Shown: piece after piece, positions 1 to 54,410 of the stretch | How positions within the stretch are numbered: position 1 is the stretch's first letter | Layout: each line of letters begins with the position of its first letter | Assembly: GCA_965197925.1 (NCBI GenBank) | Contig: CBDAOC010000019.1 | Location: 352,001 to 416,000, forward strand | Source of the DNA: Nitrososphaerales archaeon | Lineage (GTDB): Archaea > Thermoproteota > Nitrososphaeria > Nitrososphaerales > UBA213 | DNA length: 64,000 bases | Reading direction: 5' to 3' | Program-made: the position numbers and the translations under genes | Notes under the pieces: generated by a model | The model's input: the letters and a program-made list of their open reading frames with translations, nothing else | What the model was told of the DNA's origin: nothing | Databases searched by the model: none

Positions 1-2
1 AC

Positions 3-947
3 ATAATATTAAGAGACCTGGAGCGGCTAAATGAATGCTATACTCGTGTCAATAAATCTCCCTTGGGTGCAGTCGCGATTGCAGGAACTTCAATAAAAAT
101 AAATCGAAAGACGGTGGCATCTTTACTAGGATTTGATGGTATTGTAGAAAATTCCATTGATGCAACTACTTCGAGGGATGTGACAATTGAATTGTGTTTT
201 TGTCTTGCAATGTTAATGCTCAACATGAGTAGAATAGCAGAAGACTTTATTCTTTGGTCTTCCTCAGAATTCAATTTCATCCAACTTGCAGATGAACTAA
301 CATCGAGCTCGAGTGTGATGCCACAAAAGAAGAATCCATGTCCACTAGAACTATTGAGAGCGAAGGTAGCACATGTAGTTGGATTGTTATTCAGTGTAAT
401 GATGACGATAAAGGCTCTCCCAACTGGGTACAGTAGGGACCTACAGGATTCAAAACAGATACTGTTTCAAGCAATAGCAATTACGAGTGAATCGGTGAAC
501 ATTATGTGTTCTGTAATGGATACTTTGCAGGTAAATAGGAATTCAATGTTAAGATCGGCAGAGAACAGCTACGCCATTTCACTTGATGTGGCAGAAGAGC
601 TGGTAAGGGCTGGACTGCCATTTAGGGAAGCTCATAGGATAGTTGGGGCATTAGTAAGATTAGCATCCAGTAAAGGGAAAAATCTACAAAGTTTAACGGA
701 GGGTGAAATCAACATGGCGGCTGGACAAAAGTTAGTATCAGTGTTGAGTAATACTCTAGGGAAAATAAATGCTAAATATTCAGTTCACTCGAGGATATCT
801 AGAGGTTCCCCTCATCCCAGAGAACAGGACCGCATGATAAAGAGCAGAAAAACAATGGTAGGGATCTATCAGCAAAAAATAGGGGAGCGTGTGGAGTATG
901 TTAGCAGAGCTTTCAAACAATTGAGGAAAAGAGTAAAATCCTTCTAA
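3..947 (+). CDS. argH: Argininosuccinate lyase (5' part outside window)
   Basis: Frame is open from base 3 (IILRDLERLNECYTRVNKSPLGAVAIAGT). Signature SSSVMPQKKNP and C-terminal GLPFREAHRIVG. Confidence 0.95.
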   Translation: MILRDLERLNECYTRVNKSPLGAVAIAGTSIKINRKTVASLLGFDGIVENSIDATTSRDVTIELCFCLAMLMLNMSRIAEDFILWSSSEFNFIQLADELTSSSSVMPQKKNPCPLELLRAKVAHVVGLLFSVMMTIKALPTGYSRDLQDSKQILFQAIAITSESVNIMCSVMDTLQVNRNSMLRSAENSYAISLDVAEELVRAGLPFREAHRIVGALVRLASSKGKNLQSLTEGEINMAAGQKLVSVLSNTLGKINAKYSVHSRISRGSPHPREQDRMIKSRKTMVGIYQQKIGERVEYVSRAFKQLRKRVKSF

Positions 948-975
948 AATACCAGGGAATCAGTAGATCAATTAA

Positions 976-1039
976 CATGAGAGCTCTGGTAGGAGAGGCA
1001 AAATGGGGCCTCTCCACCAAACAGGGCTCATAGGTCATG
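976..1039. ncRNA. Candidate structured RNA or terminator-like long hairpin between convergent argH and tfuA
   Basis: Nested complementary segments CATGA/TCATG, GAGCTCT/AGGGCTC, GGT/ACC and GGAGAGGC/GCCTCTCC. GC-rich relative to the AT-rich flank. Confidence 0.4.
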
Positions 1040-1195
1040 GTGTGGGTCTGGTTTGGGCTTATTACACCCATTTCTATATCACTAGTGATTAATATAATTA
1101 TTTCGAATGAAAATTATGGTAAACTTGTGCTACAAATATTGACCAAGTAATTTAATAATTTGACCACAAACATCCCCGAAATTAATATTGGATTA

Positions 1196-1867
1196 TCAAC
1201 AATTGTTTTCTTTCAAAGATTCCAGGTACTGGTGTTTTACGAATTGAATTAACTTGATTGCATCCTCCTCCTTCAAGCTTTTTCTATGAGTTTTCACATA
1301 TTGCTCCATGCGTTCAAGCACTTGATCTTCTACTATTCCTTTTGCTCTATTGAACAGTTCTCCATAAGTTCGATCTGGAAAGTAGATACGTTTTGCAGTT
1401 TTCTTCAAGATCCTCTTTGTCTCCCCGTCTATTATTCCATCTTTGCAAGCATGATATAATGTATAGCGAATGTCAATCAAAGCTTCAGATTCTAATTTGT
1501 AATTTTGTATTGAAAAGGTAACTGCCACTTCATCATCTGAATCTAATATACCTTTTTTATAAAGTTCGAATATTTTTCCTATACCCTTCATTCCAAATTT
1601 TTCCAGCTCTACAGCACGCAATGCTCCTAAGCTTGCTGCTCCAATTACAAATACATCCTTCTTTTTCAATAATTTGTAAACTTCAATTGGTGTGGGAGGG
1701 TAATCTTGTAGAAAAACACCGTCTATGAATCCTATTAATTGGGCATCTGTTTTTAGAATTTCATTAAAATCCCCCTTTCTAGCTGGTGGCCTGAAATCTG
1801 CAAAAGGGAGTATTCTCTTGGCCAACTCCAGTTTCAAACTTGGACCCAAAAAAATGATAGGTAACAT
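1196..1867 (-). CDS. tfuA: TfuA-like protein (partner of thioamide-forming YcaO)
   Basis: IFLGPSL, PPARKGD, GFIDGVF, GAASLGALRAVEL and DDEVAV motifs. Likely start is ATG 1867 after a purine-rich AGGTAGGT; the track's 1936 start overlaps ycaO. Confidence 0.92.
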   Translation of the reverse strand: MLPIIFLGPSLKLELAKRILPFADFRPPARKGDFNEILKTDAQLIGFIDGVFLQDYPPTPIEVYKLLKKKDVFVIGAASLGALRAVELEKFGMKGIGKIFELYKKGILDSDDEVAVTFSIQNYKLESEALIDIRYTLYHACKDGIIDGETKRILKKTAKRIYFPDRTYGELFNRAKGIVEDQVLERMEQYVKTHRKSLKEEDAIKLIQFVKHQYLESLKENNC

Positions 1868-1886
1868 GATATACCTACCTACCTTC

Positions 1887-3221
1887 CTAATACCTTGGCC
1901 TACGAAAATATCGTCTGGCACGCTTTCCAATGACACCTTTCGTGACCTTAAATGTCTCCAAACCAGGTATTATTACCCTTACAACCGGGATTCCGATTTC
2001 CTCATCCGTTAAGTTAACTACAACTGCTCTGTCAACTCCAATTTCCTTAAGGTTACGGAGTAGCAGTTGTATATCATCAAGAATGTCAATATTTTCGAAT
2101 GTTCTCACCATATGAAAATTTTCCCTTTTCGAAGAAGGCATGAAAAGCCATGATTTAGTTTCTGCTGTATTACCCATTTCATAATTCATTCTACGAAGAT
2201 CATCCCGGGCTCCTTGGATATTAGCAGCCCTGGTCTGCGAAACTTCTGTTATTGCCCTTACTAATGCAATTCTTGCATCAGGATGTGTACCATGCCCTTC
2301 AGCCAAGTAGCCATAATCATGTGTAATCCATTGCACGCTTGTAGCGATAAAAGTTGGTATACCAATATCAGTTGTTATATCCTTAAGCAACAGAGGGATA
2401 TTTTCATCTAAGAACCTGCGTAATAATAATTCAATGTGGTTTGAATCTGTTCCAGAAGTATCAATGTCGGGAAAAATATTTGGATCGTCGACATATTCTT
2501 TTGATTCCAGTGGTTTTACATTGAAGCCATTATACTTGACTGAATCAATTAGGGAGCGTAAAACATGAAAATTAATTACGCTTGATCTAAGTTCGGCCAA
2601 GCTGACCGCGTCTCTCTCTATTACTTCACATAAGGCATGGCATATAGCCTCCTCCATAACATTACCAGATGCTAAACCATTGGTGTGAGAGAACTGGAAG
2701 GGATTAACGGGAATACCCCAAGGTTCATATCTTGATTGGCTAATACCTGCAGGAACAAAGACTTTCTCAGCCGTAAATAAATCCATACCTACCATGAAAT
2801 CTAGAGGGGAATCATCAACATAAGGAAACTTTAACGGCTCAAGCACATCATCTGGATGTATAACATATTTATTTCCATATTCTTTTGCCATGCTCTCATA
2901 GCTTTCAGTGATGTACCTATCGGTTTTCCTTGGTAGTGAACTATACCTCTCAACACTCTCCATTAATGCGCTTGTTTTTGCATGTGATTTAGTTGGCCCT
3001 TTACCGCTGTAAACCCAAATGTAATCCTGAGTACCAGGCAAAACTGCTGAATAATTCGGAATTCTTAGAACATCCATATGTGTAATATCAGCCAACCTTG
3101 TCACCCCAATTTTCTTACCAATTTGTTCTGCATGTGATAGCGTATCTTTTATTGGATATACTCTTGAGGAACCATCTGCCCACTTTCTTCTACTCTGAAG
3201 CTGTATAATGCCTCTTGACAT
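1887..3221 (-). CDS. ycaO: YcaO-family ATP-dependent backbone amide-activating enzyme, TfuA-associated
   Basis: GVTRLADIT, SGKG..SALMESVER, TNGLASGN..ALCEVIERDA, RAITEVSQTR and IPVVRVIIPGLE motifs. No C-terminal PxPxP. Directly upstream of tfuA. Confidence 0.93.
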   Translation of the reverse strand: MSRGIIQLQSRRKWADGSSRVYPIKDTLSHAEQIGKKIGVTRLADITHMDVLRIPNYSAVLPGTQDYIWVYSGKGPTKSHAKTSALMESVERYSSLPRKTDRYITESYESMAKEYGNKYVIHPDDVLEPLKFPYVDDSPLDFMVGMDLFTAEKVFVPAGISQSRYEPWGIPVNPFQFSHTNGLASGNVMEEAICHALCEVIERDAVSLAELRSSVINFHVLRSLIDSVKYNGFNVKPLESKEYVDDPNIFPDIDTSGTDSNHIELLLRRFLDENIPLLLKDITTDIGIPTFIATSVQWITHDYGYLAEGHGTHPDARIALVRAITEVSQTRAANIQGARDDLRRMNYEMGNTAETKSWLFMPSSKRENFHMVRTFENIDILDDIQLLLRNLKEIGVDRAVVVNLTDEEIGIPVVRVIIPGLETFKVTKGVIGKRARRYFRRPRY

Positions 3222-3307
3222 GAATTTTATTTTTTTGATGGTTATTAATGTCTATACAAAATACAAAATAATTAATAAGAATAAAAACCAGTTGATCAGA
3301 GATCCTT

Positions 3308-3481
3308 TTGGATAAGAATGAAACAGAGGTTCTGAATTCAATTTTTACTAAGATGGCGAAAGATCCTGAATTTAGGAACAAATTATTCAATGAACCATTG
3401 GAAGTTCTTGCAAAATTCGAAATATCTGAAAAGGCAAAAAACCTAATAGCGGATACCATCAATAATATTCTTAACCAATGA
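3308..3481 (+). CDS. 57-aa NHLP-leader-like peptide (not in ORF track)
   Basis: TTG start, MDKNETEVLNSIFTKMAKDPEFRNKLFNEPLEVLAKFEISEKAKNLIADTINNILNQ*. DPEFRxxLxxxPxxxL resembles nitrile-hydratase-like leader peptides. Divergent from ycaO. Confidence 0.7.
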   Translation: MDKNETEVLNSIFTKMAKDPEFRNKLFNEPLEVLAKFEISEKAKNLIADTINNILNQ

Positions 3482-3701
3482 TTGAATTAGATTTGTTTCC
3501 AGATAATTTATTTTGATTCTTATAGCGAAACCTCTCTGAAAAGTTCTACAATAAATTAAACCTGTCATGAACTTGGATTAACATCGACAATACTTTATCA
3601 ATGGAGTCGTAACTGTTTCTGGTGCTATATAGAGAAAGAAATGAACAATTTTCCTAAAATGAATTATTTTAGATTCCAGATATTTATAGAAAATTCACTT
3701 T

Positions 3702-4778
3702 TCAGGAATGACTTTCCTTGAAATAGGGAATGACTTCGTTTCCGAATAGTTCAATATGCTTATAGTAACCGCTTCCCCAAAATCTTATAATAAAATGCTT
3801 TACCCCTGCTTTTATGAATCGCTCGAATATAGGTATAATATCATCAGGTTTGCCCACTGCTATAGCTGATCGTGCGACCTCATCCGGGATGATTTGAGCT
3901 TCTTCTCTCATTTTAATCATAATATCTTTTTTTGACATTGAATACTCCGTAAAGTACTTTCGAAAATCAAATTCAGCTTTAGCTTCAATATTATGAATTT
4001 TTAGGACTTCTGGCTTGTACAAGCTAACTTTAAGGGGATTTTTCAATCTTGGCCATGCCTCTTCTGGGTCATCAGAAAAGTACACATCAATATCTAGACC
4101 AAAGTCTATCTTCTCCGGATCACGCCCAGCCTCTTTTGCAGCATTGGTAATAATCTGTGCATGATGCTCGTACAGTTCCGGTGTATACGCTATCGGTAAC
4201 CAACCATCACCAAACTTTCCTACTAATGAAAGTGTTCTAGGAGCACCGGCCGCCAAATACATAGGAGGTTTAGGATTTCTTATTGATTTGGTTTGTAGAC
4301 AGGCATTATTCAACTTGTAAAACTTTCCGTTGAAACTCACCCTGTTATCAGGAGACGAATTGAAAAGCAATGAGATTATTTGTAATTGTTCCTCAAAACG
4401 ACCTACAGGTTTATCCCACAATATACCAAAGTCATTTATGTTCTGTGCCTCACCAGCACCAATACCAAGTATTGCTCGTCCTTGAGATAATCTATCAAGG
4501 GTAATAGTCTGTAACGCCACGGTAGAGGGATGTCTTCTTACCGCATCCGTAACGCATGTTCCTAATTCAACATTTTTTGTAACCTGAGAAACTACAGAAA
4601 GAAATATCCATGCATCATTTATTATAGCCTTAGACCATTGAGGAACATTAGTATGGTCCATTATCCAGACTGAATCATAGTTCATTTTGTCAGCAAGTAT
4701 ACATGCTGTTAGCTGCTGGTCTTCATTAAGCCCTAACCTAGCAACATTCAGTCCTTGTTGAACCCCAAATTTGACCAT
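3702..4778 (-). CDS. LLM-class (luciferase-like, probably F420-dependent) oxidoreductase
   Basis: YDSVWIMDH, VELGTCVT..RRHP, TLDRLSQGRAILGIGAG and GDGWLP motifs. Confidence 0.88.
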   Translation of the reverse strand: MVKFGVQQGLNVARLGLNEDQQLTACILADKMNYDSVWIMDHTNVPQWSKAIINDAWIFLSVVSQVTKNVELGTCVTDAVRRHPSTVALQTITLDRLSQGRAILGIGAGEAQNINDFGILWDKPVGRFEEQLQIISLLFNSSPDNRVSFNGKFYKLNNACLQTKSIRNPKPPMYLAAGAPRTLSLVGKFGDGWLPIAYTPELYEHHAQIITNAAKEAGRDPEKIDFGLDIDVYFSDDPEEAWPRLKNPLKVSLYKPEVLKIHNIEAKAEFDFRKYFTEYSMSKKDIMIKMREEAQIIPDEVARSAIAVGKPDDIIPIFERFIKAGVKHFIIRFWGSGYYKHIELFGNEVIPYFKESHS

Positions 4779-4790
4779 GAGGGAGCTCCT

Positions 4791-5897
4791 CTATTTTGAT
4801 AATTGCCCACTCGGCGTTACTATTACCTTCATTCCCTTCCTACCCTTCACAACATCAATTGCTTGGTTTATTTCTTTGAGTGGGAATTGATGTGTGACCA
4901 TTTCCACAAAGGGATATTTCTCCCATTTCTTGGACATGAAGTTCACAAATTCATATTCATGTCTTGGTATTTTTGAATAGGAACCTATGATGGATATCTG
5001 TCTGCTGGTTATAAAGTAGGGATTTATCGGAGAAGGTCCATAATCTGCATAAGCACCAAGTTCAAGAACCCTGCCACCATCCCGAACCATATCTATGGCT
5101 TCCGGTAGCGCCTTTGGATTGCCAGTACAATCCATAACCACATCTGGGCCATGCCCTCCACTTGACTCCTTGATTTTTTTTACTCTTTCTTTTTGATCAC
5201 CAAGTGATTTGATATCAATAACTTCATCTGCACCCATTTTCTTTGCAAATTCCAACCTTTCTGCAGAGTCAATACCTATTACGTGCCTAGCACCTCTTTC
5301 TTTAGCCATAATTATTGCAAATGAACCTACAGGACCAGTTCCCTGTACAGCCACAACATCGTCAAAATCTATCCTAACGTTTTCAACTGCAGCTATTACC
5401 GTAGGACCGGCACAACCAACAGAGGCCAATGCTATGGTAGGCAAACTGTCAGGAAGTTTGAATGTTGTAACTTGAGGTGAGAGATAAATATATTCGGCAA
5501 AACCCCCCTCAAGATGAGGTGGTTTATCGGATGGTGTACTCAAACCTATTGCTTTTCTATTTATGCACCTTGTTCTCGTTCCTTTCATACAGTAAAAACA
5601 TCGACCACATGTTATACCCAAAGCCCAGTATATCCTATCCCCCTCTTTAATTGGATTACCAACACTGTCAGTCGTAACACCCTCACCGAGTCTTTCAACG
5701 ATGCCAACGCTTTCATGCCCCAATATTATCGGCACCGGTACCCATGGTACCTTTCCAGAAACTACATGAACATCTGTTCCGCAAATACCTGCACTAATTA
5801 TCTTTGCAAGTATAGCACCTTCTTTTGGTTCAGGTTTGGGAAATTCTTTTAATTCTAATGGCTCATCATTTTTATTGAAGACTGCCGCAAGCACCAT
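4791..5897 (-). CDS. Zinc-dependent alcohol dehydrogenase (MDR family)
   Basis: GICGTDVH, GHE, structural Zn CGRCFYC..C and GTGPVG Rossmann motif. Confidence 0.92.
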   Translation of the reverse strand: MVLAAVFNKNDEPLELKEFPKPEPKEGAILAKIISAGICGTDVHVVSGKVPWVPVPIILGHESVGIVERLGEGVTTDSVGNPIKEGDRIYWALGITCGRCFYCMKGTRTRCINRKAIGLSTPSDKPPHLEGGFAEYIYLSPQVTTFKLPDSLPTIALASVGCAGPTVIAAVENVRIDFDDVVAVQGTGPVGSFAIIMAKERGARHVIGIDSAERLEFAKKMGADEVIDIKSLGDQKERVKKIKESSGGHGPDVVMDCTGNPKALPEAIDMVRDGGRVLELGAYADYGPSPINPYFITSRQISIIGSYSKIPRHEYEFVNFMSKKWEKYPFVEMVTHQFPLKEINQAIDVVKGRKGMKVIVTPSGQLSK

Positions 5898-6002
5898 GTT
5901 ATTGCTTTTTCATTGGCGCAACTATTTAAATATTGTAAACACAACGATTTCCTTTTTTAGTTCAAGATATCTGATTCTCGAGTAAGAAGTAATTATATTT
6001 AA

Positions 6003-6677
6003 ATGGTAAAGATATTCTTGTTCATAATGCAAAGAAAAAGTGAGATTATGGTTAAACAGACCTGTCTTCAAGACATTGATGCCATAGTGGCGTTACAGAA
6101 AGAATCCTTCCCAGGCCTTAGCGAGATAGGTGTTGTCTGGAGACCAGAACATTTGCAAAGACAAATCCAAATATTCCCAGAAGGACAGCATTGTGTAATC
6201 TATAATGGGGAAACTGTAGGTTCAGCAAGCAGTTTAATTGTGGATTTAGGAGATGACCAATATAGGTACCATACTTGGAAGGAGGTCACCGGGGATAGTT
6301 TCTTTGACAATCACAATGCAAAAGGTGATAGTCTGTATAGAGCTGACATTTCTGTGCATCCAAAGTATCGAAGACTAAATATCGCTACTAGGATGTATCA
6401 AGCAAGAAAAGCGCTTGCAAAAAAACTGAACTTAAGAAGGATCATTGCAGGTGGAAAACTCTACAATTACTGTGAATACACTTCTGAAATGTCTGCTGAT
6501 GAGTATACACTCAAAGTTTTGAAAGGCGAGATCTCAGATCCTGTGTTGTGCTTCCAGTTGAAAGCCGGTTTCAAAGTGATCAAATTATTACCCAACTACT
6601 TGCGTGATCCACGGTCCTTAAATTTTGCTACATTTATAGAATGGATAAATCCGGATTATAAAATGAAAACAAGATGA
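6003..6677 (+). CDS. GNAT-family N-acetyltransferase (start may be 6027)
   Basis: ISVHPKYRRLNIA acetyl-CoA motif, DPVLxFQL..GF and LPNYL.D..S motifs typical of GNATs paired with CN hydrolases. Confidence 0.85.
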   Translation: MVKIFLFIMQRKSEIMVKQTCLQDIDAIVALQKESFPGLSEIGVVWRPEHLQRQIQIFPEGQHCVIYNGETVGSASSLIVDLGDDQYRYHTWKEVTGDSFFDNHNAKGDSLYRADISVHPKYRRLNIATRMYQARKALAKKLNLRRIIAGGKLYNYCEYTSEMSADEYTLKVLKGEISDPVLCFQLKAGFKVIKLLPNYLRDPRSLNFATFIEWINPDYKMKTR

Positions 6678-7556
6678 ATAGTAAATCAATTAGAGTTGCA
6701 TTGGTTCAGTATGGAATGCGGAAAATCAGTAATTTTGGAGAATTCTCAATCCAGGTAGAGTATTTCGTTTCAACGGCAAAAGATTACAAGGCTGATTATG
6801 TTATTTTTCCAGAGCTTTTAACTCAACAGCTTTTATCCTTTATAAGAGCAAAAGATCCTCAAGTTGCAATACGACGTGTTGCCAGTTATACAAGAGATTA
6901 TATCCAAACATTCAAAAGATTGGCGAAGGAGTACAAGTTATTCGTTATTGGAGGTTCCCACCCGACCCCAGTAAATGGGGGACCACAATACATCATATCT
7001 GTTTACGCCTTCTGGCAAATATTACAGACAAGATAAGATGCATATTACTCCTGACGAGCGGATTTGGTAGGGGTTCAAAGGAGGTAATTCCTTCAATATC
7101 TTTGATACGGGAAAGGCAAAGATCGCCATATCGATCTGTTATGATATTGAATTTCCTGAAATTGCCAGGATATTGAGCTCTAGGGGAGTTCAAGCTATAT
7201 TTGTTCCCTTTATGACCGATGAGAGAAAGGCCTATCTACGCATTAGATATTGTGCACATGCGCGAGCAATAGAAAACCAGATTTATGTCGCGATGGCTGG
7301 CACGGTCGGTAATTTACCACATTCTGAACATATGGATTTACAATATGCGCAGTCTGCAGTGGTTACCCCATCAGACTTTCCATTTGCGAGGGACGGGGTT
7401 GCCGCTGAGGCTAGCCTAAATACAGAAACGATGGTTGTTTGCGATCTTGATTTGGGACTTCTGCAAAAAGCCAGAAACAATGGTACAGTTACTCAAATGA
7501 AAGATCTCAGGCGAGATCTATACAATCTTTCAATAAATGCAATAAACTGCAATTGA
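6674..7556 (+). pseudogene. Carbon-nitrogen hydrolase (nitrilase family), disrupted
   Basis: IFPE, K(MH) and ICYDIEFPE triad motifs are spread over two frames. Frameshift near 6975-6990 and in-frame TAG at 7068-7070. Confidence 0.85.
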
Positions 7557-7646
7557 ACAGTTTTAAGACTAGTCAACATATCATCATACAATTATCAATT
7601 TTCGTTGAATATCTGCATAAAAAATATACATTTAAAAGGTAAAATA

Positions 7647-7859
7647 ATGTTAATCAAAGCCGATGAGGAATTTATGAAAATGGTTGATGAACTTGTCGGG
7701 TTAGCTGAGACCGACGAAGAATTGTGTGCTGGAATAAAATGGATTGATAATGAATCAAAGAAATTGGAAATCTCATTTTACGACATGTTCCTAATCGTTA
7801 TACAGAGACATATTGCCGACGAAAAGGCCAAAGAGTGGTTAAAAGGAAGACATTCATAG
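7647..7859 (+). CDS. Small hypothetical protein
   Basis: 70-aa ORF from ATG 7647 with TTTAAA about 16 bp upstream; protein-like composition; convergent with gltA. Confidence 0.6.
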   Translation: MLIKADEEFMKMVDELVGLAETDEELCAGIKWIDNESKKLEISFYDMFLIVIQRHIADEKAKEWLKGRHS

Positions 7860-7863
7860 GAAG

Positions 7864-9033
7864 CTATGATCTTCGTTTTTGAAGAGGTAAGAACTCACAC
7901 CCTAAAGGACCACAGTATTTACCTACATATGAAGCAGTTGGTCTATACAGCATAGGTTTTGGCTGTGCTTCAGCAAACTTCTCTTCTATAACATGGGCAG
8001 TCCATCCAGCCATTCTTGCCATAGCAAATATGGATGTGTTGAGATCGAGCTCTATACCTATCATATAGTATACCGATGCAGAGTACAAATCAACATTGGC
8101 AAATATATTTACTTTCTTTCTTTTCTTCATCTCCTTTTTTGTGACATCCTCTAGTTTTTTCGAAATATCATACCATGGAGATTTCAGTTTTGTAGCAAGT
8201 TGTCTAGACATCTCCCTTAAGACCACCGCCCGTGGATCATCCGTTTTGTAAACAGCGTGACCCATTCCCATTATTCTTTTACCCTCATCAAATTTTGTCC
8301 GCACCCAGTCTTCCACATTTTCCACCTTGCCTATTTTTAGTAACGCCTTCATGACTTTGACGTTAGCACCCCCATGCAATTCTCCAGATAGGGCTCCGAT
8401 GGCAGCAGCTATTGAAGCATACATATGTGCCCTAGTTGACACTACCTCACGGGCAGCAAAAGTTGAAGCATTAAAACTATGCTCAGTATGCAGAATTAAA
8501 CATATATCAAGATTTTTTACAATTTCTTCACTAGGTTCTTTACCAGTAAGCATGTACAGAAAGTTCGCTGAATGATCAAGTTTCTTTGAAGGTTTAACTA
8601 GAGGTAAGTTTTTCCTAATTCTGGACCATGCTGCTATCATTGTGGGAAAACTGGCTAAAAGATTAATTGCCCTCTCATGGTTAGCCTCTTTTGAATCATC
8701 GGCAATGTTTTCATCATAATCAGCAAGCATTGAAACGCAGGATTGAAACACATCCATAGACAATGCCGATTTTGGCCTATCCTGCATGGATCTCACTAAT
8801 GATGATGGGAGATTCCTTTTCGAAATTAATTTAGATTTGAAATTCTCAATATCAGCCTTTGTAGGTAAGTCACCAAATAACAAGAGATACGCCGTTTCTT
8901 CAAAGTTTGTATTTCTTACTAAATCAAATATATCAAATCCACGGTAGATTAATCTACCATTCCTTGAGTCTATAGCACAGATCTTTGTATCTGCAACCTC
9001 AATATTTCTTAAGCCTATGTTCTTCGCGCTCAA
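7864..9033 (-). CDS. gltA: Citrate synthase (or 2-methylcitrate synthase)
   Basis: GRLIYRG, HTEHSFNASTF, GELHGGAN, MGMGHAVYKTDDPR and ANVDLY motifs. Confidence 0.93.
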   Translation of the reverse strand: MSAKNIGLRNIEVADTKICAIDSRNGRLIYRGFDIFDLVRNTNFEETAYLLLFGDLPTKADIENFKSKLISKRNLPSSLVRSMQDRPKSALSMDVFQSCVSMLADYDENIADDSKEANHERAINLLASFPTMIAAWSRIRKNLPLVKPSKKLDHSANFLYMLTGKEPSEEIVKNLDICLILHTEHSFNASTFAAREVVSTRAHMYASIAAAIGALSGELHGGANVKVMKALLKIGKVENVEDWVRTKFDEGKRIMGMGHAVYKTDDPRAVVLREMSRQLATKLKSPWYDISKKLEDVTKKEMKKRKKVNIFANVDLYSASVYYMIGIELDLNTSIFAMARMAGWTAHVIEEKFAEAQPKPMLYRPTASYVGKYCGPLGCEFLPLQKRRS

Positions 9034-9390
9034 GATAATAGTTATAGCATTTCTTTCTATATTAAGGTGGTGTGTTTTATTAGCTATAGATTGATGAACT
9101 CATGTAACAAAATTGTTTGACCAAAAATACATATTTCCAGTATATTGAGATAATCAAAGACAGGTAGAAAGGGATTAGATCAATTTGCACAATGAATTTA
9201 GTATATAACGTTATCTACATTATCCACCAGGCTATCAATCGATGAACTTTATTAGACAGATTTATTATCTAAGGAATTAACATGCCATTGTGAAAATCGA
9301 ATTTAAGAATGTTTTCGATTAGACTTGCATTAGCCTAAACAAATGCTTGTTAAGTAATTCCCAAAATAACATATACTATGGTTCTGCTTA

Positions 9391-10396
9391 GAGCCTATCC
9401 TAAAATTCTAGCTGATAGTTAATGATTGGTAGAAATAATATCATTTAGAATGCAAGAATATTAGTTCAAACTGTCAGGTTTAGTTTTCTTACTATTGATT
9501 TTATTAGTATTGTAGATAGTAGATACTAGAAACAGTTGCATTAACGTGTTTATGACACTACCAATATATCGCTCTATACACTATTAGGCAGTTAGCAAAT
9601 TCTACTAGCGCCTGATAATTTTCCTCTCTCTTCTCGAACCTTACCAATAACTTTCTGAACCTGTTATGCCAAGATGCGGTTCTTTCTACAACCCATCTCT
9701 TTGCTTTGTACAAATTCTTTTTCAATACTTCACCCTTATGACGAATGTGATCCACATATCCCCTTCCTAACTCCATATTTCATACTCCATACTCTATCTC
9801 AGGGAAATCATATCCCTTATCTATGCATATGTTCTGTTTAACTTTGGGCCTATCAACAACAATGCTACCTAATGCAGGAAAGGCTGATTTCATATCGTGT
9901 TTATTTGCTTCAGTAACTTGGATGAGGGAGGTACTCCTCTTCTATCAACCGGCATGTGACGTTTGGTACCTAGCTTGCCCTGTCCGTTGGGTTTGCTCCG
10001 GTCGTTTTCCCCCTAATGGACCCTTCAGTAACGCTATCCATGGATTGCCAGTCCCATCCCATGCTCTTCAATTCATCACATATTTCCAGCAGCCTCTTCC
10101 ATGCCTTCCCGAATACTCCCATGCCAACCCATTCCTGAAATCTTGCATGGCAAGTTGAGCCAGAACCAAATTCTTTCGGCACCTTCTTCCACTGGCATCC
10201 GGTTCTTAATACGTACAGTATTCCATTCAACACTTTTCTAAATGGCACAGCCGGTCTTCCAACTGTTCTTGCTGGTTTCTCTGGTGGCAACACTAGTTTG
10301 AACTCTACCTATAGATCATTTGGTATATGCCATATGGTCGACATGCTCTTTTTCTTTGATTTTCTCACAAATTTAGCTAGAGAGGACAGATCTAGA
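9391..10396 (-). mobile_element. IS5-family element type A, degraded copy lacking one terminal repeat
   Basis: Starts GAGCCTATCCTAAAATT and is near-identical to 20278-21324. Transposase fragments LRTGCQW and RWVVER with frameshifts. Homology stops after AGATCTAGA at 10396. Confidence 0.88.
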
Positions 10397-10536
10397 ATTT
10401 TCAAGAATAATGTAAAACATCATGGAATTAAATTTAATTGCCGATGTTATTGGTAATATCCCACCATGAAAATAATGATTTAAATTATATCCCCATGATG
10501 AAAAAATAATGAATAAACTAACAATACCTAGTATAT

Positions 10537-11436
10537 TCAACTCATCTCAAAACCCTACAATACATCAAAAATGATGCAAGATTAACAAATGCCAGGTAGT
10601 TTTCTGCCGTTCTTTCATATCTGATTCTTGTTCTGTGAAATCCATTCTTGAGCCATGCAAGGAATCTCTCAACTACAAATCTTGTCTTGCTGTAATGTTT
10701 GCAATCATTATTTTGCAAGATGAACTTGGAATTTATTTTGTATGGGATGCAACATGCAATATTTCTATCCCACAAATACATTCTGATGTATTTTGCATCA
10801 TTTTGTCTGCATAAACTGGTTCTATCTGTTGTATTGAATCATCATCAAGATAGTCTGAAATTGATCCTGTAACATCCATGCATTTTGTACTGTCATGTTC
10901 ATTTGCTGGACTCAACAGTATGGATATTGGAAATCCGTTACCCTCTACTGCGGCATGTATTTTTGTACCTGTTATTCTCTTGAATCCATTATATCCAGTT
11001 ACATTGCCCCTTTTTTATCAGGAATGGATGAAGAGTCAACTGATATTTTTTGTAGATTAATTTTGCCAGATTTATGTGCTGAGTGAATAGTACGTGATAG
11101 AATCTTTTTCCAGATTCCTTTTTGTTGCCATTTGTTTAACCTTCTGTTTGCAGATTTGTTTAACCTTCTGTTTGCAGTAGAATCATCACCATATCTTTTT
11201 GGCATATCGTCCCATCGGCATCCAGTAGTTAGAACATGGATTATTCCGTTAATGATTTTTCTATCATCATCCCTAGGCCTGCCAGTTTTTGCATGTGGTG
11301 GTATGTGTGATTCCATCATACTCCACTGTTTGTCTGATAATTCTTGGAATTTCATAAAATAATTTTAGATGTCGCTATTCATGGATCTAAATGGTCGCTA
11401 AAAATTGTCTAAATGGTTAGTTTTGAGGTGAGTTGA
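10537..11436 (-). mobile_element. IS5-family element type B, degraded
   Basis: 17-bp TIRs TCAACTCATCTCAAAAC / GTTTTGAGGTGAGTTGA. Transposase pieces TGCRWDDMP, YADK and RFVVER. 24-bp internal duplication near 11131-11177. Confidence 0.9.
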
Positions 11437-11963
11437 ACGTTAAAAATTATTCCTAAGATTCGAATGTAGTGTGAGTGTTAAGATGGAAATTCCACCATTT
11501 TTATTGTGAAATTCCTTAGTGTTTCAAGGTGTAGGTAAAGGACATTTCTCCATGTAAATAATGTATTCAATATTCAAATGTTTTGTATTGTAGCTGCTCA
11601 TTGAGTTCAAATTGAGTTCAAAGAGGAAATCATTGACTTTTAGTGTTCATGAATATCTAAGCAAATAAACTAAAGCTTCCTGATATAGACTAGGCATTTG
11701 GCTTGAAAGGACGGGAAAGATGGTTAATCTGGAAAATAAGCAATGGAATCTCTATCAGAGTTAATCTGTGGGCTTGGTATTGTAAATACATCTGTAAAGA
11801 AGAGTTGATGATCGTAAAATGCAGGGGAACCTTACCATATTAGGATTAATGGTTTACTTCCCAAGTCTCGTTTATTTTTTATTTTAACGCTAACCTAAAA
11901 CCAAAGAATATCCTGAAATGTTTAATATGAAACATTAATATAATTTCTTGAGGAATGTAAATT

Positions 11964-12182
11964 ATGTCTCTTTGGTTGTACGTTACTGTGGGACTATTGG
12001 TTTTGATAGCTATTATCGTAGTCATGAAAGCTGATTCCAATCCAATGAGAAGTTTTAAACATAAAACTGAACTGATTACCAATGTAACATACATTTGCTC
12101 CCATTGTGGTAATTCTTTCAAAGGGGCCAAATGTCCAACTTGTGGCTCTAACAATTGGCGAGGAGAGATTGGTAGCATATAA
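11964..12182 (+). CDS. Small membrane-anchored zinc-ribbon protein
   Basis: N-terminal hydrophobic helix followed by CSHC...CPTC. Confidence 0.7.
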   Translation: MSLWLYVTVGLLVLIAIIVVMKADSNPMRSFKHKTELITNVTYICSHCGNSFKGAKCPTCGSNNWRGEIGSI

Positions 12183-12189
12183 AGTAACA

Positions 12190-12277
12190 AGCCTCGGGCG
12201 GGCCTTGATCCCGCGACCTAGCGCTTACAAGGCGCTCGCTTTTGGTGAAGATCTCTACCAGGCTGAGCTACCGAGGC
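12190..12277 (-). tRNA. tRNA-Thr(TGT) with 14-nt non-canonical D-arm intron (12241-12254)
   Basis: Acceptor GCCTCGG/CCGAGGC, anticodon arm AGCGC-CTTGTAA-GCGCT. Insert AGATCTTCACCAAA forms a bulge-helix-bulge with TGGT/ACCA. Confidence 0.93.
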
Positions 12278-12867
12278 CTTGACCTAATTAAAATAGCAGG
12301 GAATAAAAAGGTTAATCGATTATTATTCGTGATTTTGACTAAGTTTTTTTGGATTTATTACAAGTTTGTTGGAATTTGTAAAGTCGTACGGGTCCATACT
12401 TATTCAAATTCATTACCGAGTTTATAATCAAGATAAAAACTCATTCGTTCATAATGCCCAATCTTATTACTGCTTTTTATAGTCTTGGTTTGATGGAAAA
12501 AGAATAATGCTAATGCGTCTTGCATTAACACATGCTCAGGCTACTCTTGTCCCTCTTCCTTGATGAGTCCATCTCTGCCTCCCTGCTCAGGGATGCAAGA
12601 TAGTATAACGGCATCATCTGTCAAATTTGCTATTCAAAGTAGGTGATGAGATATGGTAAGTATAAGAATGTGTTTCAATGATACTTCAATGAATGTATGC
12701 TTACATTCATTCACTTTGCATTTGTTTATTGATTACGTTTTTTGATTATAATGCCTTCACTAGATTAGATTTGTAATGACCACGCATTTATAAATGCAAA
12801 TTTTTATCTGCAAAAAATGCTCATCCACTCCAATGCCTTTAAATTGATGCCAAAGGAAGGGGGTTTC

Positions 12868-13137
12868 ATGGAGTATCTTGTGAGAGTAATTGTGAAAAAT
12901 AAACCCTACATAAATGATCCTAAAGGAGAGACTATTCTAAAGGACCTTATTGCTAAAAAGGGTTATGCGTCAGTTAAATCAGTTAGAACAGCAGAGATAC
13001 TAGATATTATGATAGAAGCCAAGGCTCGTCAGGAAGCGAAGAATACTGTACAAGAAATATGTGATGAATTACGTATTTACAATCCCGTCGTAAGTGCATG
13101 TAATGTTGAAGTTATTGACAGGGATCAGGTAAAGTAA
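12868..13137 (+). CDS. purS: FGAM synthase subunit PurS
   Basis: KPYINDPKGETI and RIYNPVV motifs; upstream of purQ. Start taken as ATG 12868. Confidence 0.9.
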   Translation: MEYLVRVIVKNKPYINDPKGETILKDLIAKKGYASVKSVRTAEILDIMIEAKARQEAKNTVQEICDELRIYNPVVSACNVEVIDRDQVK

Positions 13138-20277: not shown

Positions 20278-21324
20278 GAGCCTATCCTAAAATTCTATCT
20301 GATTGTTAACGATTGGTAGAAATGATAACATTTAGAATGCAAGAATATTAGTTCATAATATCAGGTTTAGTTTTCTTACTATTGATTTTATTAGTATTGT
20401 AGATAGTAGATACTAGAAACAGTTGCATTAACGTGTTTATGACACTACCAATATATCGCTCTGTATATTATTAGGGAGTTAGCAAATTCTACTAGCGCCT
20501 GATAATTTTCCTTCTTCTTCTCGAACCTTACCAATAACTTTCTGAACCTGTTATGCCAAGATGCGGTTCTTTCTACAACCCATCTCTTTGCTTTGTACAA
20601 ATTCTTTTTCAATACTTCACCCTTATGACGAATGTGATCCACATATCCCCTTCTCCTAACTCCATACTCTATCTCAGGGAAATCGTATCCTATTCATGCA
20701 TATGTTCTGTTTAACTTTGGGCCTATCAACAACAATGCTATCTATTGTAGGAAAGGCTGATTTCATATCGTGTTTATTTGCTCCAGTAATTACAGATGAG
20801 AGAGGAATACCTCTTCTATCAACCAGCATGTGACGTTTGGTACCTAGCTTGCCTCTATCCGTTGGGTTTGCTCCGGTCGTTTTCCCCCTAATGGGGCCTT
20901 CACAGTAACGCTATCCATGGATTGCCAGTCCCATCCTATACCCTTCAATTCATCATATATTTCCAGCAGCCTCTTCCATACCTTCTTGAATACTCCTATC
21001 CCAATCCATTCCTGAAATCTTGCGTGGCAAGTTGAGCCAGAACCAAATTCTTTCGATACCTTCTTCCACTGGCATCCAGTTCTTAACACATACAGTATTC
21101 CATTCAATACTTTTCTAAATGGCACAGCCTGTCTTCCAACTGTTCTTGCTGGTTTCCCTGGCGGCAGCACTAGTTTGAACTCTACCCATAGATTGTCTGG
21201 TATATGCCATATGGTCGGCATGCTCTTTTTCTTTGATTTTCTCACAAATTTAGCTAGAGAGGACAGATCTAGATCTGTTTCGGTATAAACAATTAGGCTA
21301 TGATGTTAATTTTAGGATAAGCTC
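20278..21324 (-). mobile_element. IS5-family element type A, full-length ends, disrupted transposase
   Basis: TIRs GAGCCTATCCTAAAATT / AATTTTAGGATAAGCTC (16 of 17 match), flanked by TAA on both sides. Two-ORF transposase with a further frameshift near the DKGYD motif. Confidence 0.93.
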
Positions 21325-42104: not shown

Positions 42105-42982
42105 TCAACTCATCTCAAAACCCTACAATACATCAAAAATGATGCAAGATTAACAAATGCCAGATAGTTTTCTGCCGTTCTTTCATACCTGGTTCTTGTT
42201 CTGTGAAATCCATTCTTGAGCCATGCAAAGAATCTCTCAACTACAAATCTTGTCTTGTTGTAATGTTTGTAATCATTATTTTGCAAGATGAACTTGGAAT
42301 TTATTTTGTATGGGATGCAACATGCAATATTTCTATCCCACAAATACATTCTGATGTATTTTGCATCATGTCCTTTGTCTGCATAAACTGATTCTATCTG
42401 TTGTATTGAATCATCATCAAGATAGTCTGAAATTGATCCTGTAACATCCATGCATTTTGTACTGTCATGTTCATTTGCTGGACTCAACAGTATGGATATT
42501 GGAAATCCGTTACCCTCTACTGCGGCATGTATTTTTGTACCTGTTATTCTCTTGAATCCATTATATCCAGTTACATTGCCCCTTTTTTATTAGGAATGGA
42601 TGGAGTCAACTGATATTTTTTGTAGATTAATTTTGCCAGATTTATGTGCTGGGTGAATAGTACGTGATAGAATCTTTTTCCAGATTCCTTTTTGTTGCCA
42701 TTTGTTTAACCCTCTGTTTGCAGTAGAATCATCACCATATCTTTTTGGCATATCGTCCCATCGGCATCCAGTAGTTAGAACATGGATTATTCCGTTAATG
42801 ATTTTTCTATCATCATCCCTAGGCCTGCCAGTTTTTGCATGTGGTGGTATGTGTGATTCCATCATACTCCACTGTTTGTCTGATAATTCTTGGAATTTCA
42901 TAAAATAATTTTAGATGTCGCTATTCATGGATCTAAATGGTCGCTAAAAATTGTCTAAATGGTTAGTTTTGAGATGAGTTGA
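42105..42982 (-). mobile_element. IS5-family element type B, second copy
   Basis: Perfect 17-bp TIRs TCAACTCATCTCAAAAC / GTTTTGAGATGAGTTGA. Near-identical to 10537-11436 but with different lesions. Confidence 0.92.
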
Positions 42983-53300: not shown

Positions 53301-54410
53301 TCATTTACTCGCATTTTCGATAATCGTTTTCCACTTGTTATCACCCTTGATCTCAATTCCTGTCCTGTCTGCTGGCGTATCTCCATCCAATCCCATGTGA
53401 GGCTTGATAAAATTATGGTATAGCTTGATTCCTGCAATGGCTGGTGAATCGTCTTTTTTCAATCCTCTAAAGACTTTCTCACGATCCCGAAATTCTCCAT
53501 TAAGGCGTTCTTGAATATTGTTGTTAGCTAGCTGATTCTTGAAATGCACTTCCTTAACGTGCTTTGATGGCTTGTGCAGAAAGTTCTTTGGTGCATATTC
53601 CTTCTTGAAGGCATTATTGTAAGCTGGAAGTCCGTCTGTGACAAATACACTGGGTACCTTCTTAGCTACATCTTTTCCCATCTTTAGAAGACTTTGTGCA
53701 TCATGCTTAAACTTGCTATCTGCTACTTCTTGGGCTATCCAAAATCTAGTTTCTGAATCCATCATAGCAAAAAGGTATTTTCTATCACCTTTTACTTTAA
53801 GCCACACTTCATCTGCATGCCATTTGTCACCTACTTGTGGAGTAATGGTTGAGAGATAGTTATCCATGAGTTTAGTGTATTTCTTTATCCAACGATAAAC
53901 TGTGGTATGGTTTACATTGATTCCCTGTAGCTTGATGAATTTCTGAACTCCACGCAAGGATTCACCAGTAAAGTAAAGCTGCATTGCAGAGGTTATGATT
54001 TGAGGGGATGCATGCATCTTCTCAAATCCCAGATTGATAGAGAATCTTTTCTTGCAGTCAAGACACTTTAGCCTTTGAATGGAGTGTGTCTTGTTCTTTC
54101 TGATTCCGTCTTTTCTTAGCTGGTTAGATTTGCAGAAAATACAACAGTCAATATTTATAGAAGCCAAGACAACTTTTGGCTTTACTTCTTTTCTAATGGC
54201 TAGGCTAATCTCTACTGCATGAATGTGTTTGCAGCAGATTTTTCTAAAGTTATGATCCTCACAGGAGCAAGACCAACCAAACTCAGTACCGACAACATCA
54301 TGGATAATATTTCTTGTCTGGCTATTCACTTCATAGTGGGTTTCATCTAGTCTTCTGATTTGATCTTGCTTTTCTGTAATTTCTTTTCCTCTAAGTTCTC
54401 TTTGATTCAT
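53301..54410 (-). mobile_element. IS6-like DDE transposase with N-terminal SWIM and zinc-ribbon domains, intact ORF
   Basis: SWIM CSC...CKH, CIFC/CLDC, HTH TTVYRWI, DDE residues in WHADE, VTDG and NNIQER. Confidence 0.87.

Follow-up and report, generated by a model that had tools for sequence, protein, structure and literature searches.

Among the described systems closest to the locus considered here is the one that makes the thioglycine of McrA in methanogens and anaerobic methanotrophic archaea (ANME), where ycaO is directly followed by tfuA and the enzyme has no PxP tail (TIGR03266/NF033432; 6PE3, 6XP8; PMC5589413). In such systems YcaO makes the thioamide via an O-phosphorylated intermediate and TfuA hydrolyses ThiS-COSH by a Ser-Lys pair (PMC13185837). 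Only two thioamidated cellular proteins have been characterised (PMC13063428); with uL16, the E. coli YcaO offers the precedent of a conserved enzyme modifying a folded housekeeping protein encoded elsewhere, though it has an extra tetratricopeptide repeat (TPR) domain and works without TfuA, which is present here. YcaO-TfuA homologues of ammonia oxidisers are already in print and were placed in a clade with methanogens (PMC5589413, section 5), and why ycaO-tfuA is retained, in the absence of methyl-coenzyme M reductase (MCR), by ammonia oxidisers of soil, of hot springs and of the Nitrosomirales type has been a question ever since. One such pair, accompanied by a small divergent gene, lies within a 64,000-nucleotide stretch (the window) of a Nitrososphaerales archaeon (assembly GCA_965197925.1, contig CBDAOC010000019.1, positions 352,001 to 416,000). 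The explanation that we favour, and to which we would give an even chance, is that the small protein is a stand-alone, leader-like subunit or activator of a protein-thioamidating YcaO-TfuA, the target being a conserved protein elsewhere. The features of the locus are as follows:

1196..1867, minus strand: tfuA, 223 aa; ThiS-thiocarboxylate hydrolase type, partner of a thioamide-forming YcaO
1887..3221, minus strand: ycaO, 444 aa; TfuA-associated type, without the C-terminal PxP motif
2472..2582, minus strand: YcaO insert specific to the lineage, about residues 214-250, where the small protein is predicted to dock (contacts at 217-248)
3222..3307, no strand: divergent spacer between the small gene and ycaO, 86 bp, 79% AT
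3308..3481, plus strand: small open reading frame (ORF), 57 aa, TTG start; four-helix leader fold resembling nitrile hydratase-like leader peptides (NHLP) and LigA, no core peptide

As the original prediction had it, ycaO and tfuA are intact and co-oriented (tfuA 19 bp downstream), and the small ORF is divergent from ycaO, 86 bp from its ATG. YcaO matches PF02624 at 242 bits and TfuA matches PF07812 at 126 bits, the latter match recurring in 39/42 related loci in addition to the window. Likeness to the McrA system extends to the best profile and PDB matches (MJ1094, PDB 6PE3, is the closest solved YcaO relative, E 1e-33; TfuA aligns with 6XP8 across residues 4-212, E 1.8e-31) and to single-copy retention throughout the lineage. 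The differences are that both specific models are missed (277 bits for the McrA-specific TIGR03266, cut-off 365; 217 bits for NF033432, cut-off 235.2), that there is no mcrA, and that about 35 extra residues, the docking insert, and a small partner are found here, a partner that the tested MCR-linked genomes do not have. The source genome (labelled G000; 98.7% complete, 5.4% contaminated) carries amoA and one ycaO gene, and no match to MCR-alpha (PF02249) was found in it by a search that detected its positive controls, in agreement with the supposed non-methanogenic host.

The YcaO C-terminus reads ...RYFRRPRY, which bears out the predicted lack of a PxPxP tail, and the PxP motif is missing in 18 ammonia-oxidiser YcaOs; the scores with TIGR03604 (143.7, cut-off 219.25) and with NF040716, the uL16-modifying type of Pseudomonadota (33.6 bits, cut-off 700), also remain below the cut-offs. 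Residues E88/E91/R92, E199/E202/R203 and E326/Q329/R331, which we take to be those that bind ATP/Mg, are invariant in 33/33 YcaOs, and Ser79 and Lys199 of TfuA, invariant in 32/32 relatives, align with the Ser and Lys of 6XP8. For tfuA, the ATG giving 223 aa agrees with the homologous starts (taken at its longest, the frame starts from GTG 1936). A second, fused C-D YcaO of 818-838 aa that ends in PHPLP, with TIGR03604 and TIGR03882 above cut-off and an adjoining SagB dehydrogenase, occurs in one genus (g33) of the family labelled f4 below (L062:957-4928 and L063:5784-9635, in G232 and G291), similar long frames being seen in G179 and G258; judging from these matches, it may belong to an azole-forming cluster for a peptide made by the ribosome and modified after translation (RiPP) in some soil ammonia oxidisers.

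The distribution of the three genes was followed across 301 evenly sampled genomes from the class. Both ycaO and tfuA scored above cut-offs in an identical set of 58 genomes, namely the source genome and every sampled member of three families (f1, 4/4; f3, 10/10; f4, 43/43), against 0/191 in the family f2 (one sub-cut-off ycaO fragment) and 0/52 in amoA-negative families. By their tree placement beside named records, f3 and f4 would be Nitrosocaldaceae and Nitrososphaeraceae, f1 is probably a Nitrosomirales-type lineage, and f2, with amoA in 185/191, can be taken to be Nitrosopumilaceae plus Nitrosotalea (the f2 genomes G214, G115 and G266, flagged unpublished, enter the f2 tallies only). The small protein was found at E<1e-11 in 56/58 of the module genomes, the other two being assemblies in fragments, where a contig end interrupts ycaO; outside these 58 there are only partial matches (E>=0.005, in 6/243). 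It is encoded head-to-head with ycaO in 38/56, every linked copy being divergent, and is unlinked yet retained in 18/56 (three genera; in three closed genomes the distance is about 1 Mb), where the copies inspected are full length and have unrelated neighbours. Co-conservation, proposed earlier as the check on a three-gene thioamidation module, was thus found both in the census and in 30/42 related loci with a homologue near ycaO (the other 12 being eight Nitrososphaera-type loci, two short of upstream DNA, one divergent archaeal and one bacterial), and together with the absence of mcrA from the source genome it supports that module. That all members keep the module as a single copy does speak for a housekeeping function. 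A locus labelled Nitrosopumilus (L029) also carries the module; its sequences resemble Nitrosocosmicus rows, and the label was treated as unreliable.

Further evidence comes from a model of the complex of YcaO, TfuA, ATP and the small protein, with an alignment supplied per protein. Its score was 0.74 (runs 0.74/0.69/0.74), against 0.00-0.01 for three controls; the score mark, which was reached by 116/157 solved complexes and 2/215 mismatched pairs, holds only roughly in this setting (own alignments, ATP included). At least 89% of the contacts were common to the runs, the pLDDT (predicted local distance difference test) of the partner was at least 85, and swapping out YcaO reduced the score to 0.01. 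The confident contacts, none of which is listed on TfuA or on the ATP motifs, link YcaO residues 217-248 and 439-441 to every face of helices 1, 2 and 4 in the small protein, whose invariant R23 contacts D246 of a conserved DD of YcaO in the model and whose last helix (43-56) belongs to the modelled docking face, the tail beyond being not conserved. The binding of the small protein to the YcaO insert is accordingly supported by the model, and it is unlikely that this is a model pass through memory of a like complex, because YcaO residues 214-262 have no counterpart in the alignment with 6PE3, the closest solved relative.

The insert is a lineage trait. The segment D204-K280 measures 76-82 aa in the 18 ammonia-oxidiser YcaOs, 59-76 aa in 44 bacterial relatives and 41-45 aa in 29 other Thermoproteota. 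In a phylum sample of 301 genomes, a related YcaO was found in 30 other genomes, every match coming in two pieces that skip the insert; five of those genomes were tested, with mcrA in 5/5 and the small protein in 0/5. MCR-linked YcaOs are without the insert.

By its conservation pattern, the small ORF is to be regarded as a real coding gene, because homologues are conserved, majority-base conservation at codon positions 1/2/3 is 0.73/0.80/0.46, the ratio of nonsynonymous to synonymous substitution rates (dN/dS) has a median of 0.23 (33/48 pairs below 0.5, maximum 0.86; 48/861 pairs passed the saturation filter, among 42 rows with some identical copies) and the stop codon is in register; in some database annotations the homologues are hypothetical proteins. 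The earlier description as an NHLP-like peptide stands in part. TIGR03793 is matched at E<=0.1 by 20/20 homologues (best 3.4e-5), a likeness that appears real but weak, while the protein of the window falls below the cut-offs of TIGR03793 (16.6 bits, cut-off 50.9) and NF038399 (16.7, cut-off 40) and has no core. The AlphaFold2 model (mean pLDDT 88.8) shows four helices, and the family profile picks up nitrile hydratase alpha (E 1.2e-6), 9CJX (E 0.0018), NHLP leaders and gallate dioxygenase. Fold comparison ranks borosin methyltransferase, SonA, LigA and DesB in the top four rows (Z 4.9-5.5, root-mean-square deviation (rmsd) 1.4-3.0, 43-53 aligned residues), and Z values of 3.9-5.5 to borosin, LigA, DesB, 8TB1 and Os1348 are all below the caution level of the tool; on the modelled structure the rows seem to form one coherent superfamily, though weak by the scale of the tool. 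Foldseek gave no match at E<=0.001, and the first match of an Atlas search (0.88, an archaeal cluster) is a lead only. Nitrile hydratase itself was considered as a partner and rejected, as the family profile matches solved nitrile hydratases and nothing comparable in the source genome.

With the NHLP/proteusin precursors (TIGR03793; MprE7, 8TB1; Os1348, NF038399) and the borosin precursor SonA, the small protein appears to share a helical bundle and the motif A-x-x-D/E-P-E-F-R, common to nitrile hydratase alpha and LigA-like domains; it differs in being a helical bundle only, the model containing no beta-strands. The first ~60 residues of MprE7 form a rigid bundle, and the enzyme-binding motif (in the C-terminal half) and the core lie beyond (PMC10858898), that is, beyond the point at which the small protein ends. 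The fold alignments likewise reach only the leader part of known precursors (1-51 of 87 in 8TB1, 3-45 in SonA), the chain stops 2-5 residues past helix 4 in 41/42 rows (within the alignment range) with a family-variable tail, and neither the small protein nor its 42-row family contains a Gly-Gly boundary with a modifiable core (family composition: Gly 0.8%, Cys 0.4%). A core made by stop read-through was ruled out, there being no conserved read-through, and a search of the source genome with four profiles (that of the family, a wider one built from 94 sequences, TIGR03793 and the bacterial A4) revealed no second NHLP-like gene with a core. Thioamitide and TfuA-related RiPP clusters (PMC8120280) also combine a ycaO-tfuA pair with a small neighbouring ORF; here neither a core-bearing precursor nor tailoring enzymes nor a transporter are conserved. 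The classical RiPP reading is therefore not supported. Of the two substrates considered originally, a RiPP-like precursor is the weak one (no core, no Gly-Gly, a variable tail of 2-5 residues, no conserved accessory genes and modelled docking on the outer insert), and a housekeeping protein, offered at the time as the alternative, is the better supported.

The mechanism that we propose treats YcaO-TfuA as an ATP-dependent system for backbone O-to-S exchange (thioamide formation) that would be single-copy core equipment in three ammonia-oxidiser families. By the established chemistry of these protein families, TfuA would take sulfide off a thiocarboxylated carrier of the ThiS type, whose gene lies elsewhere, and YcaO would activate the target amide. 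The 57-aa protein may be a leader domain whose core was lost or never present; it is modelled to bind the helix-loop insert outside YcaO as a stand-alone subunit and might stabilise or switch on the enzyme like a leader supplied in trans. Leaders supplied in trans can activate YcaO enzymes. What is modified would be another, conserved protein of the cell, in the manner of McrA and uL16, with stability as a plausible purpose. Three ThiS matches, one of them fused to ThiF, are present in the source genome. A dedicated ThiS for the module was sought and rejected, as stand-alone copies do not track it (8/40 and 40/40). A ThiS/MoaD-like protein with four extra residues after Gly-Gly is encoded at G000:C20:637873-638145, and its homologues, many inside open frames of ~260 aa, occur in 40/40 ammonia oxidisers tested.

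The subunit reading is favoured because the segments flanking the catalytic motifs are highly conserved while the insert varies, a pattern linked to a fixed protein substrate. Specifically, YcaO segments 54-71 and 294-312 show 92% and 79% mean pairwise identity among ammonia oxidisers, as against 64% and 54% among the bacterial sister enzymes described below; the overall identities of the two groups are 60% and 53%, and that of the insert is 39%. Such conservation next to catalytic motifs has been argued to mark a fixed protein substrate (PMC13063428, Discussion).

Several points weigh against this explanation. (i) The two segments presumably line the substrate groove, a placement that we infer. 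(ii) The listed contacts are the confident ones only, and unlisted residues may still touch. (iii) In the small protein, conservation is no higher in the interface columns than in the rest (0.58 vs 0.57). (iv) The fold matches are weak, the best having Z 5.5 at rmsd 2.8 over 51 aligned residues. (v) Co-occurrence alone proves little, because the module pattern is in effect one gain plus one loss, and the unrelated mannosyl-phosphoglycerate synthase, reported as acquired by the ancestor of ammonia oxidisers and lost by that of the rod-shaped lineages (PMC7554672), nearly matches it (19/21 module-positive vs 0/20 negative genomes). The gain/loss supplements of that paper other than Table S2 contain no YcaO or TfuA terms. 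(vi) No thioamidated target was found for the module. One candidate route to a target was a motif search with G-aromatic-aromatic-G-aromatic, which we take to be McrA-like; it returned five matches in 1.1 million six-frame residues of the source genome, none of them persuasive. (vii) The nearest sampled YcaO relatives adjoin precursor-like ORFs, which favours a peptide-substrate ancestry.

These relatives emerged from 35-row careful trees, in which the ammonia-oxidiser YcaOs are sister to a bacterial ycaO-tfuA clade with support of 99/100, or 96/95 without the insert (the bacterial set was seeded from one match, the outgroup is distant, and the euryarchaeal methanogen and thioamitide enzymes were left out); a 93-row tree, from a quick search only and with six broken or fused bacterial rows omitted, was also made, and the conclusions are drawn from the 35-row trees. 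As sequence trees they would refine, and not overturn, the published placement with methanogens in PMC5589413. The bacterial clade (loci L178-L215, L220, L224, L226, L227, L230, L241, L248, L253, e.g. L189:1209-5891) is mostly Acidobacteriota and has a shorter insert, at whose end the DD-x-x-x-F-P motif recurs. A small five-helix ORF stands beside ycaO in 45/50 loci; it differs from the archaeal one in being of another family, co-oriented, 82-113 aa long and provided with a variable, often Cys-containing C-terminal tail, which could be a core. Homology of the archaeal and acidobacterial small proteins was considered and not detected (hhalign probability 4%), and no Pfam, NCBIfam or fold match was found for the bacterial protein (best Z 3.8). 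Insert-bearing YcaOs tend to accompany a small folded protein, which is tailed in bacteria and tailless in ammonia oxidisers. The bacterial clusters run in the order Ser/Thr kinase with TPR repeats (checked in two loci), small five-helix ORF, ycaO, tfuA, and this apparently undescribed acidobacterial cluster is a candidate for a new thioamide RiPP or signalling system.

A bolder version of the subunit reading, which we put forward tentatively and think rather less probable, is that an ancestor of the ammonia oxidisers took up a RiPP-type YcaO-TfuA, that the precursor was cut down to its folded leader as a permanent third subunit, and that a conserved housekeeping or energy-metabolism protein is now thioamidated. 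If this is true, McrA and uL16 would be joined by a third thioamidated protein of the cell, and a coreless leader would be serving naturally as an enzyme subunit in trans.

Of the competing explanations, the one that survives best, though we consider it unlikely, makes the small protein itself the substrate: docked by its folded domain, it would unwind its last helix or tail into the active site and yield a thioamidated mini-protein or a released short peptide. This would fit the NHLP-clan profile matches of all 20 homologues, the fold likeness to the MprE7 leader and SonA, the head-to-head linkage in 38 of 56 genomes, the binding to YcaO predicted by the model (0.74, best control 0.01) and the precursor-like ORF in 45 of 50 sister loci. 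Yet the alignment covers the leader part of precursors only and then the protein ends, Gly and Cys contents are low, the tail varies, there is no conserved read-through, the last helix sits in the modelled docking face, no transporter, protease or tailoring gene is a conserved neighbour, and near-universal single-copy retention is unlike the patchy occurrence of RiPP clusters.

Improbable, in our estimate, is that the small protein serves in trans as a genuine leader for a very short core, itself leaderless and encoded elsewhere, the product being a small thioamide peptide such as a metal binder; the leader-only anatomy, the docking outside the ATP motifs and the grouping of the YcaO with peptide-modifying-like bacterial loci, which holds with the insert removed, would suit it, against which the loci contain no conserved extra ORF of at least 50 aa (ORFs under 25-30 codons were not searched) and no export genes. 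Marginally less credible again is a small protein that inhibits or regulates YcaO, is transcribed on its own from the divergent promoter and is dispensable for catalysis: the opposite strand, a TATA-like element of its own, the unlinked copies in 18 of 56 genomes and binding outside the listed catalytic motifs all speak for it, but a protein never seen without the enzymes and almost never missing where they occur (56 of 58) looks more like an obligatory subunit. That there is no functional link, the small gene being an unrelated core gene with a common lineage history and neighbourhood, seems far-fetched: one gain and one loss would explain the co-occurrence, as for mannosyl-phosphoglycerate synthase, and the gene is unlinked in three genera, but head-to-head linkage is held in three families and the modelled interface lies on an insert confined to this branch of YcaOs, with controls at 0.00-0.01.

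Earlier work has come near to this locus. Eight thaumarchaeal TfuA-related clusters are reported in PMC8120280, with a Nitrosocosmicus cluster drawn, and the legend of its Figure S11 gives the ycaO neighbour only as 'hypothetical protein' and names no precursor; its RiPPER peptide table (Supplementary Table 5) may list the small protein, as Figure S15 has a Thaumarchaeota colour. A literature search, with most subscription papers outside its coverage, found no paper describing the small protein. The present analysis adds a census across the families, a docking site located on the lineage-specific insert, the sister clade in bacteria and the case against taking the small protein for a precursor. 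For reconstitution, the results offer a likely missing component and a specific docking surface; for the search for the target, they provide a filter, that is, a protein or site conserved in f1, f3 and f4; and for genome miners, they indicate that the 'TfuA-related clusters' of ammonia oxidisers are probably not natural-product clusters.

Around the module, only ycaO, tfuA and the small ORF are common to the families (ORFs of at least 50 aa compared, 44 loci), and in that comparison no conserved transporter, peptidase/protease, tailoring or export gene was found near it; the neighbours in the window (argH, an LLM oxidoreductase and a zinc dehydrogenase) are not conserved partners in related loci. 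The divergent spacer holds back-to-back TATA-like heptamers, 37 nt before the TTG of the small gene and 28 nt before the ATG of ycaO, which may be putative promoters, although at 79% AT matches can be due to chance. A sigma-70 promoter scan stayed at chance level, with a model not suited to archaea, and an Rfam scan of window positions 1-13000 found a tRNA at 12190-12277 and no other RNA element. In Nitrosocaldus-type loci (L057:7496-8464; L032-L035) a gene resembling bile acid:sodium symporters or PanS (sub-threshold) lies between ycaO and the small gene, and genes resembling ATP-binding cassette (ABC) peptide permeases follow tfuA; both are limited to that lineage.

Elsewhere in the source genome, identical 85-residue frames on opposite strands, about 1 kb apart (G000:C20:514421-514675, plus strand, and 515602-515856, minus strand), suggest an inverted duplication. 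Within the window, a carbon-nitrogen hydrolase gene at 6674-7556 (plus strand), directly 3' of a GNAT gene at 6003-6677, is broken into two frames around 7000-7040 by a frameshift or assembly error. Transposase genes or fragments occur at 9558-11355, 20844-21245, 42110-42487 and 53301-54410, of which IS5 at 9970-10293 and IS6 at 53301-54410 are confirmed, the remaining ones being assigned by likeness to known transposases.

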